A stretch of 64,000 nt of DNA from Escherichia coli (GTDB lineage: Bacteria > Pseudomonadota > Gammaproteobacteria > Enterobacterales > Enterobacteriaceae): the NCBI RefSeq assembly GCF_022846255.1, contig NZ_AP025682.1; one strand, given 5' to 3'. The notes below the pieces were generated by a model. The model saw only the letters and a list, made by a program, of their open reading frames with translations. It made no database searches and was not told where the DNA came from. This document shows positions 1-6,553 of this stretch, in pieces. Each line of letters starts with the position of its first letter. The first letter of the stretch is position 1. The position numbers and the translations under genes are program-made.

Positions 1-219
1 TTTTCGATCATTCGTGAGGCTGGAAGACGTGCAGGATTAGCTGTAAAAGCACATCCTCATATGTTACGTCATGCCTGTGGTTTTGCTCTGGCTGACAATG
101 GTGTCGATACCCGACTACTTCAGGATTATCTGGGTCATCGAAATATTCAGCATACTGTCAGATACACAGCCAGTAATGCTGCTCGATTTAAAGGGGTGTG
201 GAAAAAAAAGCCTCGTTAA
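1..219 (+). CDS. Tyrosine site-specific recombinase, FimB/FimE family, C-terminal 72 codons only (5' end outside window)
   Basis: Frame-1 translation ...HPHMLRHACGFALADNGVDTRLLQDYLGHRNIQHTVRYTASNAARFKGVWKKKPR* has the conserved catalytic tail of FimB/FimE-type invertases; stop TAA 217-219. Track ORF 71-277 is the overlapping other frame. Confidence 0.8.
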   Translation, partial: FSIIREAGRRAGLAVKAHPHMLRHACGFALADNGVDTRLLQDYLGHRNIQHTVRYTASNAARFKGVWKKKPR

Positions 220-231
220 AACAGTACCTTC

Positions 232-247
232 TGATTCAAAATGTCAG
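232..247. repeat. Left inverted repeat TGATTCAAAATGTCAG
   Basis: Perfect 16-bp reverse-complement match to 494-509; starts 13 bp after recombinase stop. Confidence 0.7.
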
Positions 248-493
248 ATTCCTACGTTTTCCTCAATTCTTCCATAAAAAAACAGCTCATTCAATTAAAT
301 AAAACACATAACATGTTGATATTTCTCGCTAAAGTAAAATAACCCCATGATTTGAAATGATTAACCATAAAGGTCATACCAGTGATCAGTTTTCACTCGC
401 GTTGTTAAATAACACAAAATTAAAAACAATAAAAATCAAACAAATTAGATTTATATTCCAAGAAAATTAAATATTCAGGCTATTAAACCAAAC

Positions 494-509
494 CTGACAT
501 TTTGAATCA
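494..509. repeat. Right inverted repeat CTGACATTTTGAATCA
   Basis: Perfect reverse complement of 232-247; lies inside a perfect 33-bp palindrome (490-522) that ends 27 bp before the LuxR start codon. Confidence 0.7.
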
Positions 510-548
510 AAATGTCAGGTTTTGTAGCAATGGCGTGGACGAGTCTGA

Positions 549-1343
549 ATGAAGAAGCCTCTGGTTATTATCAGTGCCTGTCAGTTCACCAGGCTGGCAC
601 TGGAGTCTCTCATCCCAACGGACAGGTATCTCGTGCGGGTGTACAGCAACGTCACTACAGAGGTTGAATTCGTTTTAAAGACCTCCTGTGGCTACCTGTT
701 AGCTGATATCCCATCGCTTCCTTCGGGGGAGTTGGTTCTTCTGGCTTGTCTTGTCCGCTTGCGGAGTGATGCCGGGCAATGGCAGGTCTGCCTGACCGGT
801 GACTCCGACTGGTTCGATAATGCTCCTGCTGCAAGTCTGTATAACGGCTTCCCACGCATCGGCACCATGCTGACAGCGAGTCGTTATCAGAATCAAATTA
901 TCCGCTGGTTACTACGTCCTTTGCCCGGCGATATGAGCGATTTCTGGCTCCTGACTGCACGGGAGTTGAGCGTGCTTAAGATTCTGATGCAGGGTATGAG
1001 TTTCAGTGAGATTGCCCGTTATGAACAACGCAGTTCAAAGACCCTGCATGCGATTGCCACACGGGCTTTAATGAAACTTGGACTGGGAACACTGAGCGAT
1101 TTCAGGCTGCTCTATACGGGATGCGGTGACAGCAGAGTGAAACGGAATATACGGCTACATGCAAAATATATCGGACAACATTCCGCTCATCGACTCACTC
1201 AGTATGTGCAGAACATGGTATCCGGAATTCTTTATCCAGAGAAAGTTGCCGTTGGTGAATCAATAAATTCTGACGCCATATCCGGAAAAGTACTTTCCGG
1301 ACAAAGAAAAAATATGTCTAAAAAAAGACCAGGATTGTTATGA
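549..1343 (+). CDS. LuxR-family transcriptional regulator (264 aa), atypical N-terminal domain
   Basis: ATG at 549; LuxR-type HTH ...LTARELSVLKILMQGMSFSEIARYEQRSSKTLHAIATRALMKLGLGT...; N-terminus receiver-like but lacks the acidic DD pocket. Confidence 0.75.
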   Translation: MKKPLVIISACQFTRLALESLIPTDRYLVRVYSNVTTEVEFVLKTSCGYLLADIPSLPSGELVLLACLVRLRSDAGQWQVCLTGDSDWFDNAPAASLYNGFPRIGTMLTASRYQNQIIRWLLRPLPGDMSDFWLLTARELSVLKILMQGMSFSEIARYEQRSSKTLHAIATRALMKLGLGTLSDFRLLYTGCGDSRVKRNIRLHAKYIGQHSAHRLTQYVQNMVSGILYPEKVAVGESINSDAISGKVLSGQRKNMSKKRPGLL

Positions 1344-1496
1344 CACAGCAGCGTTGTTACTACCCCCCACTGCGGCGCATACGGACTCGCTACAGTGTAG
1401 GAGCCAAAATATTTCTACTGCTCTGGGCTGCAGGATTGGGAGGCACGCTGTACAGCCTGTACAGCGTGCTGGCGTACTGACATCTGTGAGGGAAGG

Positions 1497-2258
1497 ATGC
1501 GTTTCGTTCTTTTCTGTCCCTCAGGAATTGTACCAGCGCAGTTCGCAGCTCTATCAACCGGTTCTGTCGGCAATGTTACCTGCATCAGAACAGAAGAGGA
1601 GTTACGCAATAAATTGCGGCACAGGCCACAGAGTGTCGTGATATCGGCAGGGCGACCTGCCGAATGCGCTGAAATGTGGTTCCGATTTTATCGGGATCAC
1701 TCATTCGTGGTGGTGTTGTGCGTCGCACCCTTTTTTCTGCCACCAGATGTGAGTATTTCTGGCGTTCTCAAAAACCTGAGGTTACTGAAACCAGGAATGT
1801 CAGTAGAGCGTGTCATCAGTATTGCAAATGCCTCTGGTGGGTTTTCAGGGCTGAAACATGCAGAAATTTTGCCAGTTATGGACAGTTACTCTGTCTTTAT
1901 GAAAGAGGTGAATAACCGCACAAAGACAATCGTCATGTCAGAACGCTTCCCGGAAAAGCAAAAGAAGGTGTTGTCGTTGCTTCTTGCCGGACACAGCTGG
2001 GAATACAGTGCGCAGTTTCTCAAAACGGGGATAAGACAGATATGGCTTGCCGAGCAGTCGCTAAAAAAGCGTTGGGGAATACCGGACAGCATGTCATTGC
2101 GGGAAGCCCTGCTGCTTGGCAGCAATAAATTTCACGGTGATGGAAACGCATTGGAAACAACGAATGCCATGACATTGCGTGAAAACGGAAATACCAACAG
2201 GTATTCCGTGGTGGTAAATGCAGGGACGCAGGCTTTATCTCTGCATAAATATAAATAA
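1497..2258 (+). CDS. Second LuxR-like regulator (253 aa), degenerate HTH
   Basis: ATG at 1497 with AGGGAAGG SD; C-terminal ...EKQKKVLSLLLAGHSWEYSAQFLKTGIRQIWLAEQSLKKRWGI... resembles a LuxR/GerE HTH. Confidence 0.55.
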   Translation: MRFVLFCPSGIVPAQFAALSTGSVGNVTCIRTEEELRNKLRHRPQSVVISAGRPAECAEMWFRFYRDHSFVVVLCVAPFFLPPDVSISGVLKNLRLLKPGMSVERVISIANASGGFSGLKHAEILPVMDSYSVFMKEVNNRTKTIVMSERFPEKQKKVLSLLLAGHSWEYSAQFLKTGIRQIWLAEQSLKKRWGIPDSMSLREALLLGSNKFHGDGNALETTNAMTLRENGNTNRYSVVVNAGTQALSLHKYK

Positions 2259-2299
2259 GTGGGAAATTGAAATTAGTTACCAGAATGGAGAATTTCTTC

Positions 2300-4762
2300 A
2301 TGAAAAACAGTAAGGCATTTTACCGCAGCGCATTAGCAACAGCTATTGTTATGGCTCTTTCTGCACCAGCATTCGCTGCTGATAAAGCGGTATCAACTGA
2401 TTCGGTTACGCTGAATAAAGATAAGACAACTCTGGATCAAGATGTTGTTATTAACGGTGATAACAAGATTACAGCCGTAACAATTGAAACGTCAGATTCA
2501 GATAAAGACCTTAATGTTACTTTTGGCGGTCACGATATTACCGCCGCATCAACGGTAAACCAAGGTTTCGTTGAAGGTGTAAAAGTTAGCGGTGACAAAA
2601 ATGTTGTGATTAATGCTACAGGCTCCACCATCACAGCTCAAGGTGAAGGCACCTATGTCCGGTCTGCAATGGTCATTTCTTCAACTGGCGATGTTGTTGT
2701 TAATGGCGGTAATTTCGTTGCAAAAAATGAAAAAGGTAGTGCGACAGGGATATCTCTGGAAGGGCCCCAGGGAAATAATGTCACGCTCAATGGCACAACC
2801 ATAAATGCTCAAGGCAATAAGAACTCCAGCAACGGCTCCAGGGCAATTTTTGCTCAAAAGGTTAGCGGATTGGATGGTTTTAACGGTGATGCAACAGACA
2901 ACATTACCCTTGCTGGCTCAAATATTATTAATGGTCGGATTGAAACAATACTTATTGCCAAGGAGAATAAGGGAACTCATACAGTCAACCTGAATATTAA
3001 GGATGGCTCAGTAATTGGGGCGGCTAATAATAAACAAACAATTTATGCCTCAGCTTCGGCACAAGGAACAGGTTCAGCAACGCAAAATTTAAATTTGTCT
3101 GTTGCTGATTCAGCCATCTACTCTGATATCAAGGCCCTTTCTGTAAGCAATAGTTCAGTCGGTACCACAACAAATGTAAACATGAACGTTGCCCGCTCTT
3201 ACTGGGAAGGTAATGCTTATGCTGATGCTTATGGCGATAAAGCGAGTAGTAATCTGAATATAAATCTTTCCGATGGCTCAGTCTGGAAAGGTAACGTAGG
3301 TAAAGGTCTGGATGGTAGTGCACGTGTCACACTGAAAAACTCCAGCTGGGATGGTGATGTCAACAACGCCAAAACTGCTGTTTTTCTGACGGATGGTTCT
3401 GTGTGGAATGGTGCTGTTTCCATTAACGCGCCAGTGGACCGCGCATCAGTACCAATGGGCTCGGTTCAACCAAATAAAAGCAGTGTATCTCTGCAAAACG
3501 GGTCTGTCTGGAATGTTACGGGAGCCTCAACTGTTGATGCTCTGGCAGTAAAAGACAGTACGGTTAATATCACGAAGGCTACAGTCAATACTGGCACGTT
3601 TGCTTCTCAAAACGGCACTCTGATTGTTGATGCCTCTTCTGAAAACACTCTGGATATCAGCGGAAAAGCGAGCGGTGACTTGCGTGTTTACAGTGCGGGT
3701 TCATTGGATCTTATCAATGAACAAACGGCATTTATTTCTACCGGCAAAGACAGCACTCTAAAAGCCACAGGCACAACGGAAGGTGGTCTGTATCAATATG
3801 ACCTGACACAGGGAGCTGATGGTAACTTTTATTTCGTAAAAAACACGCATAAAGCATCCAACGCCAGCTCCGTGATTCAGGCAATGGCAGCTGCTCCGGC
3901 TAACGTTGCTAATCTGCAGGCTGACACGCTCTCCGCCCGTCAGGATGCTGTCCGTCTGAGCGAAAATGACAAGGGCGGCGTATGGATTCAGTACTTTGGC
4001 GGTAAACAGAAACATACCACCGCGGGAAATGCATCCTATGACCTGGATGTAAATGGTGTAATGCTGGGTGGTGATACCCGCTTCATAACTGAAGATGGTA
4101 GCTGGCTGGCCGGTGTGGCGATGTCTTCTGCGAAAGGTGACATGACTACCATGCAGAGCAAAGGTGACACTGAAGGTTACAGCTTCCACGCTTACCTGAG
4201 CCGCCAGTATAACAACGGTATCTTCATTGATACTGCTGCACAGTTTGGTCACTACAGCAACACGGCAGATGTTCGCCTGATGAATGGTGGCGGTACCTTT
4301 AAAGCTGACTTTAACACCAATGGTTTCGGTGCGATGGTTAAAGGTGGTTACACCTGGGAAGACGGTAATGGCCTGTTTATTCAGCCATATGCCAAACTGT
4401 CTGCTCTGACGCTGGAAGGTGTGGATTATCAGCTCAACGGCGTGGACGTTCATTCTGACAGCTATAACTCTGTGCTGGGTGAGGCCGGTACGCGCGTGGG
4501 TTATGACTTCGCTGTGGGCAACTCGACCGTTAAACCTTATCTGAATCTGGCCGCACTGAACGAATTCTCTGATGGCAACAAAGTCCGTCTGGGTGATGAG
4601 TCTGTCAATGCCAGCATTGACGGTGCAGCATTCCGCGTGGGTGCAGGTGTACAGGCTGATATCACCAAAAACATGGGAGCATATGCTAGCCTTGACTACA
4701 CCAAAGGTGACGACATTGAGAACCCGCTACAGGGTGTAGTTGGTATCAATGTGACCTGGTAA
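2300..4762 (+). CDS. Autotransporter (type Va) adhesin, pertactin/AIDA-like passenger plus C-terminal beta-barrel
   Basis: Signal peptide MKNSKAFYRSALATAIVMALSAPAFA; passenger repeats (NGTTINAQG, DGSVWKGNV, DGSVWNGAV, NGSVWNVTG); C-terminal translocator ending ...GVVGINVTW. Track ORF starts at TTG 2267; ATG 2300 has GGAG SD. Confidence 0.85.
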   Translation: MKNSKAFYRSALATAIVMALSAPAFAADKAVSTDSVTLNKDKTTLDQDVVINGDNKITAVTIETSDSDKDLNVTFGGHDITAASTVNQGFVEGVKVSGDKNVVINATGSTITAQGEGTYVRSAMVISSTGDVVVNGGNFVAKNEKGSATGISLEGPQGNNVTLNGTTINAQGNKNSSNGSRAIFAQKVSGLDGFNGDATDNITLAGSNIINGRIETILIAKENKGTHTVNLNIKDGSVIGAANNKQTIYASASAQGTGSATQNLNLSVADSAIYSDIKALSVSNSSVGTTTNVNMNVARSYWEGNAYADAYGDKASSNLNINLSDGSVWKGNVGKGLDGSARVTLKNSSWDGDVNNAKTAVFLTDGSVWNGAVSINAPVDRASVPMGSVQPNKSSVSLQNGSVWNVTGASTVDALAVKDSTVNITKATVNTGTFASQNGTLIVDASSENTLDISGKASGDLRVYSAGSLDLINEQTAFISTGKDSTLKATGTTEGGLYQYDLTQGADGNFYFVKNTHKASNASSVIQAMAAAPANVANLQADTLSARQDAVRLSENDKGGVWIQYFGGKQKHTTAGNASYDLDVNGVMLGGDTRFITEDGSWLAGVAMSSAKGDMTTMQSKGDTEGYSFHAYLSRQYNNGIFIDTAAQFGHYSNTADVRLMNGGGTFKADFNTNGFGAMVKGGYTWEDGNGLFIQPYAKLSALTLEGVDYQLNGVDVHSDSYNSVLGEAGTRVGYDFAVGNSTVKPYLNLAALNEFSDGNKVRLGDESVNASIDGAAFRVGAGVQADITKNMGAYASLDYTKGDDIENPLQGVVGINVTW

Positions 4763-4801
4763 GAATAAAGCAGTCGGTTCCCCTGTCGACTGTTATACCC
4801 C

Positions 4802-4830
4802 CCTGCAGGCAGCAGTATGCTGCCTGCAGG
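4802..4830 (+). terminator. Perfect 13-bp stem / 3-nt loop hairpin downstream of autotransporter (no U-tract)
   Basis: CCTGCAGGCAGCA-GTA-TGCTGCCTGCAGG, 40 bp after stop. Confidence 0.35.
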
Positions 4831-4946
4831 CTATAAATATCCAGTATTCATGATGCTGGCTTTTTGCTGATATTTACCCTGAACATTCCTGATACAGACT
4901 ATTAATACAATCTTATCTGCGACAGATTTCATTTTCTGGATATATT

Positions 4947-5615
4947 ATGAATGAACAAATCAAACAGGATATCGATCTGATTGAGATTTTATTTTATCTG
5001 AAGAAAAAGATTCGTGTTATCCTTTTTATTATAGCTATCTGTATGGCAATGGTGCTGTTGTTTCTGTATATCAATAAAGATAATATAAAAGTGAGTTACA
5101 GCCTAAAAATAAATCAGACAACACCAGGCATACTTGTTAGCTGTGATAGCAATAATAACTTTGTCTGTCAGACCACAATGACTGAAGATGTTATTCAGCG
5201 AATTACTACATTTTTTCAGACCAGCCCAGATGTCAAGAACAGAGAAATAAAGCTGGAATGGTCAGGAGATAAGAGAGATTTACCAACTGCTGAAGCGGAA
5301 ATATCTCGCGTGCAGGCGTCTATCATCAAATGGTATGCGTCAGAATACCATAATGGCAGGCAAGTTCTCGATGAGATACAAACGCCTTCAGCAATTAACA
5401 GTGAGCTTTATACAAAAATGATATACCTGACCAGGAACTGGTCACTATATCCGAACGGTGATGGCTGTGTCACTATAAGCTCACCAGAAATAAAAAATAA
5501 ATACCCTGCTGCCATTTGCCTGGCTCTGGGATTTTTTCTAAGTATTGTGATTTCTGTAATGTTTTGCCTTGTCAAAAAAATGGTAGATGAATACCAACAA
5601 AACTCTGGGCAGTAA
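4947..5615 (+). CDS. ykgH: Predicted inner-membrane protein YkgH
   Basis: 222 aa, N-terminal TM segment (ILFIIAICMAMVLLFLYI) and C-terminal TM; position next to ykgG matches ykgH. Confidence 0.6.
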   Translation: MNEQIKQDIDLIEILFYLKKKIRVILFIIAICMAMVLLFLYINKDNIKVSYSLKINQTTPGILVSCDSNNNFVCQTTMTEDVIQRITTFFQTSPDVKNREIKLEWSGDKRDLPTAEAEISRVQASIIKWYASEYHNGRQVLDEIQTPSAINSELYTKMIYLTRNWSLYPNGDGCVTISSPEIKNKYPAAICLALGFFLSIVISVMFCLVKKMVDEYQQNSGQ

Positions 5616-5685
5616 TAAACAGCATTCTGACAGAGAGTGCCTGTATAAAACTATAGTGACAGTGACCGGGAAGGGAGCCCGTCTT

Positions 5686-5708
5686 CAGGAATGGATTCCT
5701 GTCTTTTT
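5686..5708 (+). terminator. Intrinsic terminator after ykgH
   Basis: CAGGAAT-GG-ATTCCTG hairpin followed by TCTTTTT. Confidence 0.5.
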
Positions 5709-5857
5709 AACTGTAAATATCCTGGCATTATTAATGTCAGGATATTTACAGAAGAGCAGCATAACCATGACGGAACGGGGTTAAGTCAGGTTGTCCTTAA
5801 CGTTATTCACAACCTCGTATACCGCCTTCAGGTTTATGTCCAGACTACATATCTCTC

Positions 5858-6553
5858 TCAGCAATCCTCAATAATCAGATACACCGCTTTCACCGGACCA
5901 TGAACCCCGACGACTTTGATAAGCTCAATGTCCGCCGTTGAACTGGGACCACTGATGATGTTAATACATGACGGCATTCGTTCACCGGCCTGCGCTTTCT
6001 GATGCAATTTTTCTGCGAGTTGCGCTACACGCGGCAGGATTGTGCTTTTACGCAGGATAAAAAGAGAAGATTCCGGGAGCAGGCTCAATGAACGCCCGCG
6101 CCCGGCGGCGGAAAAAAGAACCACGCCTCCCGATTCGGTTAAACCATATTCAGCATATACGACGCCCACTTTAGCCTGCTCTGCTTGTGATATGTTCTCA
6201 ATACCTTTCGCCGGATCCCAAACAACGGCATTGCATTCCTGCTGCAAACGTTCGCTAATCCCCAATTCCTCCAGCCTCGTGTCACCACTAATCACGACCG
6301 ACTGATCTCCCAGCTCTTTACACAGACGTATTGCAGCTTCTGCCGCCTTCGCCTCGCTGGTCAGTTCACAGCGCGTCAACATAACATCGCTGGCAAACTG
6401 GATAAACGCGTCACAGCGCTGCTGTTGGGTAAGTTGGGTAAGCCGCTCGTTAGCATAGTTGTTAAGCGGCGCATCTTCTGCTTGCGGTTCAAGTCGCAGC
6501 GGGCGACCCAGTGCCTGAGCAACGTTATTCAAAAATTCGCTCCGATTATCCAT
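5858..6553 (-). CDS. ykgG: LutC-like protein YkgG (LUD domain)
   Basis: 231 aa from internal ATG (MDNRSEFLNNVAQALG...) with AGGAG SD; start overlaps ykgF stop (ATGGATAA). Confidence 0.8.
   Translation of the reverse strand: MDNRSEFLNNVAQALGRPLRLEPQAEDAPLNNYANERLTQLTQQQRCDAFIQFASDVMLTRCELTSEAKAAEAAIRLCKELGDQSVVISGDTRLEELGISERLQQECNAVVWDPAKGIENISQAEQAKVGVVYAEYGLTESGGVVLFSAAGRGRSLSLLPESSLFILRKSTILPRVAQLAEKLHQKAQAGERMPSCINIISGPSSTADIELIKVVGVHGPVKAVYLIIEDC

Follow-up and report, generated by a model that had tools for sequence, protein, structure and literature searches.

The window, a 64,000-nucleotide stretch of the Escherichia coli contig NZ_AP025682.1 (assembly GCF_022846255.1), begins with a run of co-oriented genes and an invertible DNA element, hyxS, inserted between betA and ykgH. 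Taken as a whole, positions 1-4870 are very probably best explained as PAI-X, a pathogenicity island of extraintestinal and avian pathogenic E. coli (APEC). The order in the island is fimX/ipbA, hyxS, hyxR (autA), an unnamed open reading frame (ORF) of 46 codons, hyxA (autR), and hyxB (upaB). The locus, its phase switch, the opposed roles of its two regulators, and the structure of its adhesin are already known from work published in 2012-2019. Two points are worth passing on, a conserved small ORF that has been overlooked and a disconnect between the aut and hyx names; the locus as first annotated adds nothing new.

Gene content and identity of the block

The block and its downstream neighbour contain the following features:

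1-219, + strand: 3´ end (72 codons and stop) of ipbA, also called fimX or hbiF, encoding a Fim-type tyrosine DNA invertase (NCBIfam NF007371, E 7.5e-35; RefSeq position in PSUO2 and GN04979)
232-509, no strand: hyxS invertible element, 278 bp, with perfect 16-bp inverted repeats and a 246-bp core
549-1343, + strand: hyxR (autA), LuxR/GerE-type regulator of 264 amino acids with a receiver-like N-terminal domain
1340-1480, + strand: unnamed 46-codon ORF, MTQQRCYYPPLRRIRTRYSVGAKIFLLLWAAGLGGTLYSLYSVLAY; ATG overlapping the stop codon of hyxR (ATGA), end 16 nt short of hyxA
1443-1469: perfect palindrome of 27 nt (13+13) inside the 46-codon ORF, unique in the window
1497-2258, + strand: hyxA (autR), cryptic protein of 253 amino acids with predicted receiver and helix-turn-helix domains
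2130-2329, + strand: published PupaB probe, -170 to +30 of the upaB ATG, covering the hyxA 3´ end and the 41-bp gap (coordinates calculated from the PMC4844996 methods, with the ATG placed at 2300)
2300-4762, + strand: hyxB (upaB), type Va autotransporter adhesin, 820 amino acids counted from the ATG, with a TTG further upstream at 2267
4841-4869, + strand: terminator-like hairpin with a T-rich tail, 3´ of hyxB, the only extragenic site of this kind from hyxR to ykgH
4947-5615: ykgH, downstream of hyxB and followed by ykgG, ykgF, and ykgE on the opposite strand

The identity of the island follows from its genes and its site. At 99.0% DNA identity, the best genome match to the window, RefSeq names ipbA (“also known as HbiF and FimX”), hyxR, hyxA, hyxB, and ykgH, with betA upstream; most other matches fall at 95-99%. 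The two RefSeq records compared, PSUO2 and GN04979, both read betA-ipbA-hyxR-hyxA-hyxB-ykgH, and hyxR, hyxA, and hyxB are full-length, in this order, and 97-99% identical to the named proteins. Only the C-terminal 72 codons of ipbA are readable, the gene being cut by the window start. The name PAI-X is used in PMC3789825 and “UpaB cluster” in PMC4844996. With 1-5700 as the megablast query, the whole block was found in 1,538 of 5,426 complete E. coli genomes, the others matching at the ykgH end only; the island is present in about 1,540-1,890 of the 5,426. In an island-free strain betA adjoins ykgH directly, which confirms both the insertion between these genes (betA itself lies beyond the window edge) and the suggestion of an initial annotation of 549-4762 that the block is accessory.

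The observation behind that annotation is confirmed: three + strand ORFs are present at 549-1343, 1497-2258, and 2300-4762, leaving gaps that work out at 153 bp and 41 bp. Its interpretation is partly supported overall. By starting at 549 it left out 1-548 with the 3´ end of the FimX invertase gene and the hyxS control element, and it missed that the locus is named and studied. The 153-bp gap is not an empty spacer, as it holds the conserved 46-codon ORF.

The hyxS switch and its orientation

The AT-rich spacer between ipbA and hyxR holds hyxS, which is organized as follows:

232-247: left 16-bp repeat, TGATTCAAAATGTCAG
248-493: invertible core, 246 bp, about 33% G+C
494-509: right 16-bp repeat, CTGACATTTTGAATCA, complement of the left repeat
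487-525, no strand: 19-bp palindrome (95%) embedding the right repeat and a third copy of the repeat
266-294, - strand: best sigma-70-like site in hyxS, TTGAAT, 17-nt spacer, and TG-extended AAGAAT (relaxed hexamer scan, weak 8/12 match)

The left repeat begins 13 nt past the ipbA stop codon, and the identity of the element is supported by the repeat length, which equals the 16 bp published for hyxS (PMC6083910). When 248-493 was inverted in silico and both versions were searched against complete genomes, counting end-to-end matches, the orientation of the window was found in 1,780 genomes and the inverted version in 16. Strain GPEC1035 matches the flanks and both repeats at 100% in direct orientation, but it matches the core, at 243/246 positions, solely as its reverse complement. 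Thus, the breakpoints of natural variants are exact, and hyxS inverts in nature precisely at the 16-bp repeats. A third, direct copy of the repeat motif with one mismatch lies at 503-518, giving a total of three matches in 64 kb against 0.05 expected, and the palindrome at 487-525 probably represents paired half-sites for the recombinase. A Salmonella-type switch (L005, 5485-5513) has a weaker palindrome (14 nt, 79%) at its hyxA-proximal inverted repeat, which may likewise be such a pair. The switch design is kept in divergent loci: L007 has a repeat of 21 bp, and the 16-bp repeat of L005 has TGATTCAAAA in common with hyxS.

According to passages in three sources (PMC6083910; bioRxiv 10.1101/494401; PMC8777976), hyxS is flipped by FimX alone and its orientation governs hyxR expression. 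In the mechanism that these passages suggest, the FimX tyrosine invertase would flip the 278-bp element between its 16-bp inverted repeats, and one orientation would aim an internal promoter at hyxR (ON), making HyxR expression phase-variable. As for primary work, hyxS, in the fimX-hyxS-hyxRAB region of PAI-X, is said to have been described by Bateman and Seed in 2012.

With moderate confidence, the window is probably in the OFF state. The candidate promoter at 266-294 faces ipbA as the window stands, and inversion would place it upstream of hyxR, about 65 nt from the ATG, a layout that mirrors the one mapped for ipuS, a related switch discussed below. The orientation of the window is that of the majority, about 99% of assemblies, and deposited genomes are nearly all OFF at the homologous switch of Salmonella (PMC11294581). 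A strict promoter scan found no site in hyxS on either strand and gave fewer matches than shuffled sequence.

The regulators HyxR and HyxA and the UpaB adhesin

HyxR is 99% identical to proteins of that name and is recognizable as a LuxR-like regulator by sequence, as the initial annotation proposed for both regulators. Residues 135-181 match the Pfam GerE/LuxR helix-turn-helix (E 3.9e-6), the PDB matches of this domain are PdeL and RcsB, and weak NCBIfam matches are to FimZ, RcsB, BglJ, and EcpR. For HyxA the same assignment holds by predicted fold only, from which both a receiver and a GerE-type helix-turn-helix are seen; neither the single sequence nor the profile of its family gave any Pfam, NCBIfam, or PDB sequence match. 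The absence of a Pfam match agrees with the earlier remark that the helix-turn-helix of the second regulator is degenerate. Published Phyre2 modelling of AutR also gave a match to this domain, at 24% identity (PMC4844996). HyxA is thus a protein whose fold is recognizable as receiver plus helix-turn-helix even though sequence methods fail to detect it.

The predicted structures, built on shallow alignments, have a (beta-alpha)5 receiver fold in the N-terminal domains of both proteins, with FixJ, RcsB, NarL, VraR, and EvgA as the best fold matches; the AlphaFold model of HyxR matches FixJ with E 7.5e-8 in Foldseek. Receiver-like domains with a defective phosphorylation pocket had been proposed, and the models support an incomplete pocket in both. 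HyxR has S9-A10 instead of the acidic pair after strand 1 and no Lys after strand 5, and it keeps D53 as the phospho-acceptor Asp after strand 3 and T83 as the Thr/Ser after strand 4. In HyxA, C7-P8 is at the position of the acidic pair, S50-A51 at that of the Asp, and C75-V76 at that of the Thr/Ser, with K98-P99 kept. The island from betA to ykgH contains no histidine kinase ORF, as also remarked in PMC4844996. Because the pocket is incomplete in both and the island has no kinase gene, HyxR and HyxA most likely act as response-regulator look-alikes, functioning without phosphorylation and with a dosage set by the switch. Alternatively, HyxR could be an orphan response regulator in the true sense, with Asp53 phosphorylated by a kinase whose gene lies elsewhere. 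D53 and T83 do not vary across the HyxR family and lie where predicted strands 3 and 4 end, and the family profile gives a weak N-terminal match to the receiver domain of TorR (E 0.072). However, S9-A10 takes the place of the Mg2+-binding acidic pair, S9 and C11 are invariant, and HyxR has no match to Pfam Response_reg; together with the missing Lys and the missing kinase gene, this makes phosphorylation of HyxR quite improbable.

HyxR and HyxA share a predicted two-domain layout with regulators of the NarL/FixJ family, the first domain being a receiver fold and the second a four-helix DNA-binding domain of GerE type. They differ in the incomplete pocket, in the absence of a partner kinase gene, and, for HyxA, in the absence of detectable sequence similarity. 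Atypical, phosphorylation-independent relatives are found in the NarL/FixJ family, namely RcsA, BglJ, and EcpR/MatA. The view of the two genes as tandem divergent paralogues found no sequence support: BLASTP between them gives E 0.27 and hhalign of the family profiles a probability of 0.35%, and they were rejected as detectable paralogues.

The HyxA family is small, with 29 cluster representatives among 1.84 billion proteins. With a five-sequence alignment as query, 100,044 species genomes yielded two loci, one in Escherichia sp. and one in Salmonella diarizonae, and the family was found only in these two genera. A motif, TG(I/V)RQ(V/I)W, is conserved within it and falls in the predicted C-terminal, helix-turn-helix-like helical domain, with a tentative assignment to a helix. 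Several apparently distant matches were rejected, P0029-P0031 and P0027 as frameshifted translations of the same DNA and P0082 and P0084 as spurious repeat proteins. In two metagenome contigs (L009 and L010, 5001-6207) a homologue 42% identical to HyxA is followed by a gene for a CaiF/GrlA-family regulator instead of an adhesin, with insertion sequence fragments on the flanks and no recognizable small ORF or invertase nearby.

HyxB has a signal peptide, with a signal-like N-terminus, MKNSKAFYRSALATAIVMALSAPAFA, read from the translation, a beta-helix passenger that matches the crystal structure of UpaB (6bea, E 5.7e-233), and a beta-barrel at residues 421-820 (TIGR01414, E 1.8e-68) that also matches BrkA (3qq2). 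The allele has 55-56 extra passenger residues (339-394) relative to the 765-amino-acid allele of GN04979, which explains genome matches that come in two pieces at 97% coverage; the extra residues are probably a few additional rungs of the beta-helix. As published, UpaB is exported by way of its own beta-barrel, and it binds fibronectin and glycosaminoglycans (PMC6488583); the structure of its passenger is 6bea.

The expression primers published for autA map to 549-572 and 1314-1340, and those for autR to 1497-1518 and 2230-2255 (PMC4844996); AutA is therefore HyxR, and AutR is HyxA. The deletion primers of that study fit the same two ORFs. The guess that the pair consists of an activator and an anti-activator had in fact been reported for AutA and AutR at the upaB promoter (Zhuge et al., 2016; PMC4844996). 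In that study, the PupaB fragment was shifted by maltose-binding protein (MBP) fusions of either AutA or AutR in electrophoretic mobility shift assays (EMSA). Deletion of autR raised upaB mRNA about 37-fold in a manner that required autA, AutA activated PupaB transcription about 9-fold in vitro, and AutR cancelled the activation. AutR alone had no effect on upaB transcription, neither in vitro nor in the autA autR double mutant. We found no sigma-70-like site matching at least 8/12 positions in 2100-2300, as expected for a promoter that depends on an activator. Judged by the published genetics, EMSA, and in vitro transcription, HyxR/AutA binds and activates the upaB promoter in the 3´ end of hyxA, and HyxA/AutR binds the same fragment and cancels the activation.

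Another possibility is that HyxA is not mainly a DNA-binding repressor but a pseudo-response-regulator that sequesters HyxR into an inactive heteromer through receiver-receiver or helix-turn-helix contacts. Its helix-turn-helix is too degenerate for Pfam and PDB profiles, AutR affects upaB only by cancelling AutA, and the capsule and acid-resistance targets, which need both proteins and are complemented by neither alone in the double mutant (PMC4844996), would fit a complex. On the other hand, MBP-AutR shifts PupaB by itself, and the conservation of TG(I/V)RQ(V/I)W in the predicted DNA-binding domain points away from sequestration, which we regard as possible rather than probable.

More distant targets have been reported as well. 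In concert, AutA and AutR repress the operons for the K1 capsule and activate the acid fitness island (PMC4844996). HyxR represses hmpA (PMC3789825; PMC8777976), and mutants of hyxA and hyxR are altered in serum resistance and in the length of their O-antigen chains (Phan et al., 2013; PMC3789825). These reports fall into two bodies of literature on the same genes, with hyx names used in work on uropathogenic E. coli (UPEC), phase variation, nitrosative stress, and O-antigen length and aut names in work on APEC, UpaB, K1 capsule, and acid resistance. No cross-citation between them and no paper using both sets of names was found in the literature searched, and the AutA/AutR paper (PMC4844996) makes no mention of hyx names, FimX, a switch, or inversion. 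Combined, the two literatures imply that FimX-driven phase variation may extend to capsule, acid resistance, and UpaB.

Whether the genes form one transcription unit, as had been suggested from the short gaps, is contested. The gaps 1343/1497 and 2258/2300 contain no terminator-like site, in line with the suggestion, but published reverse transcription PCR (RT-PCR) was negative across all three intergenic regions in APEC strain DE205B (PMC4844996), and the upaB promoter fragment works alone. The strongest form of the idea is that hyxR, the 46-codon ORF, hyxA, and hyxB are a single operon with the invertible promoter in hyxS as its sole significant one, such that UpaB itself would be phase-variable like UpaE under ipuS. 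In its favour are the tight packing (a 4-nt overlap of hyxR and the small ORF, 16 nt to hyxA, 41 nt to hyxB), the lack of sigma-70-like sites at the same cutoff in 1250-1500 as well as in 2100-2300, the position of the only extragenic terminator-like site after hyxB, and the gene order kept in the divergent loci L004 and L007. In addition, the wording “hyxRAB operon” is used in PMC11294581, and ipuR-upaE of the sister system is an operon under the control of ipuS (PMC6083910). Against this, the -170 to +30 fragment alone gives AutA-dependent transcription in vitro, and deletion of autR lifts upaB mRNA with the switch untouched. These results, along with the negative RT-PCR, make the single operon doubtful.

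Several points weigh against the scheme in which phase-variable, phosphorylation-independent HyxR controls the locus. The four genes were found to be transcribed at dnaE-like levels with no read-through among them (Zhuge et al.; PMC4844996), and a simple picture of the switch driving an operon does not fit with this. The cultures of that study were probably mostly in the majority hyxS orientation, and the autA and autR mutant phenotypes seen in them would mean that hyxR is not fully silent in the majority state. The OFF call combines a weak 8/12 promoter match with analogy to ipuS and the Salmonella T1 switch, the specificity of FimX and the definition of ON and OFF are taken from secondary citations, and the pocket residues of the regulators were assigned by the register of predicted strands instead of a residue-level structural alignment.

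A few observations concern the surroundings and variants of the island. YkgH is a protein of 222 amino acids with hydrophobic segments at both ends, and its N-terminus has a weak match to TIGR01006 (polysaccharide chain-length determinant; E 0.0097, far under the curated cutoff), which could be due to chance. The match is curious because ykgH adjoins the island and hyxA and hyxR mutants alter O-antigen chain length (PMC3789825). In the O157-type strain PNUSAE008406 (L003, 2657-6560), ipbA, hyxR, and hyxB have become pseudogenes and ykgH is interrupted by a stop codon; hyxA is intact, as is the 46-codon ORF at 98% identity. In PSUO2 (L013), a 99%-identical strain, the downstream stretch that would correspond to approximately 9000-64000 of the window carries rclRABC, the inverse autotransporter gene fdeC, ykgM/ykgO, the ecpRABCDE pilus operon (with EcpR as a further atypical regulator of LuxR type), an island with the autotransporter vat, and tail genes of a prophage.

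The small ORF between hyxR and hyxA and related loci

The 46-codon ORF at 1340-1480 is preceded by AGGA 6 nt upstream of its ATG and would encode a peptide with a basic N-terminus and a hydrophobic C-terminal helix. Public databases list the exact sequence under no name but “hypothetical protein”, and NCBIfam gives no match. The ORF is unannotated in the RefSeq records of PSUO2 and GN04979, and both PMC3789825 and PMC4844996 count four island genes, this ORF not among them. A comparison of 1300-1520 with the divergent locus L004, in which HyxA is 42% identical, is free of indels at about 65% identity, suggestive of coding sequence, and the differences between the two at codon positions 1, 2, and 3 number 12, 11, and 25. 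By tblastn, the peptide recurs immediately 5´ of the HyxA homologue in L004 (59% identity, E 8e-16), L007 (7e-11), L008 (1e-9), the Salmonella-type T1 locus L005 (9e-7, at the position of STM0717), and L006 (0.04). The open frame, a motif, RYSxGA(K/R)(I/L)F, and the hydrophobic tail are kept in five further lineages in which HyxA is 35-53% identical. From these comparisons, the ORF looks like a gene for a conserved small membrane protein, one that appears to be undescribed. It is probably translationally coupled to hyxR and may be a further component of the system, which would be new here.

The conservation of 1340-1480 could instead reflect a cis-acting RNA or DNA element, e.g. with the palindrome at 1443-1469 as an attenuator or binding site, and the ORF would then not be a gene. 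The palindrome is indeed perfect and unique in the window, the RefSeq pipeline makes no call of the ORF, it has no family match, and the synonymous excess in the comparison with L004 is modest, with 16 synonymous and 19 non-synonymous codon changes. Yet in L004 the palindrome is broken in its nucleotides with the peptide LYSLY retained, and third-position differences are twice those at first or second positions. As RNA, the gap folds no more stably than shuffled sequence does (z = -0.79), and an Rfam scan of 1-6000 gave chance miRNA matches only. With the frame and motif kept across lineages as divergent as those above, a cis-acting element is unlikely. The palindrome was rejected as a terminator, attenuator, or lux-box-like operator, having no T-tract, lying inside a conserved ORF in a gap whose fold is not unusual, and having nucleotides that are not kept in L004.

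If the 46-codon ORF is the gene of a small membrane protein, published constructs have affected it. The autA deletion (549-1343) takes out its start codon, and the autR complementation clone (1327-2285) carries the whole ORF.

Set beside known systems, the block of the window differs in nothing essential from PAI-X (Phan et al., 2013; PMC3789825), with which it shares the betA/ykgH site, the gene order, the products at 97-99% protein identity, the 16-bp repeats, and the occurrence of both orientations in nature; its HyxB allele is 55-56 residues longer than the 765-amino-acid allele. By primer mapping, the AutA/AutR/UpaB cluster of APEC (Zhuge et al., 2016; PMC4844996) consists of the same genes. 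The ipuA/ipuB-ipuS-ipuR-upaE locus of UPEC CFT073 is built along similar lines (Battaglioli et al., 2018; PMC6083910): a Fim-type recombinase is followed by an invertible element of 260-280 bp with a promoter, then by a LuxR-type regulator and an adhesin of the autotransporter class. The recombinases cross-react, and FimX flips ipuS too (PMC6083910). In contrast to hyxS, the repeats of ipuS are 7 bp and the distal one is inside the ipuA coding sequence, such that inversion truncates IpuA; one regulator is described, the autotransporter is 271 kDa, and the locus is on a separate island. The RefSeq hyx names, the repeat length, and the size of the autotransporter led us to reject the ipu locus as the identity of the block.

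The Salmonella T1-antigen locus, STM0716-STM0726 (PMC11294581), is the more distant relative. Its invertase is 72% identical to FimX, its switch of about 270-290 bp has a repeat sharing TGATTCAAAA, and both switch orientations occur with a strong OFF bias in deposited genomes. The switch is followed by a small ORF at the STM0717 position, the C-terminal half of which matches the 46-amino-acid peptide, and then by the HyxA homologue STM0718 (about 39-40% identity). The locus differs in having no HyxR homologue and in its cargo, a cluster for polysaccharide synthesis and ATP-binding cassette (ABC) export with no autotransporter. STM0717 and STM0718 have no detectable role in T1 production (PMC11294581). 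A tentative suggestion is that the conserved core of the cassette may be invertase, switch, a membrane protein of approximately 46 amino acids, and a HyxA-type pseudo-response-regulator, instead of invertase, switch, and LuxR regulator, because PAI-X has the former set in common with the T1-antigen locus of Salmonella, which lacks HyxR. In that case, some of the phenotypes ascribed to autA/hyxR could come in part from loss of the small protein, since the autA deletion removes its start codon, and the small protein would be a real partner, e.g. as a membrane tether or signal input for HyxA.

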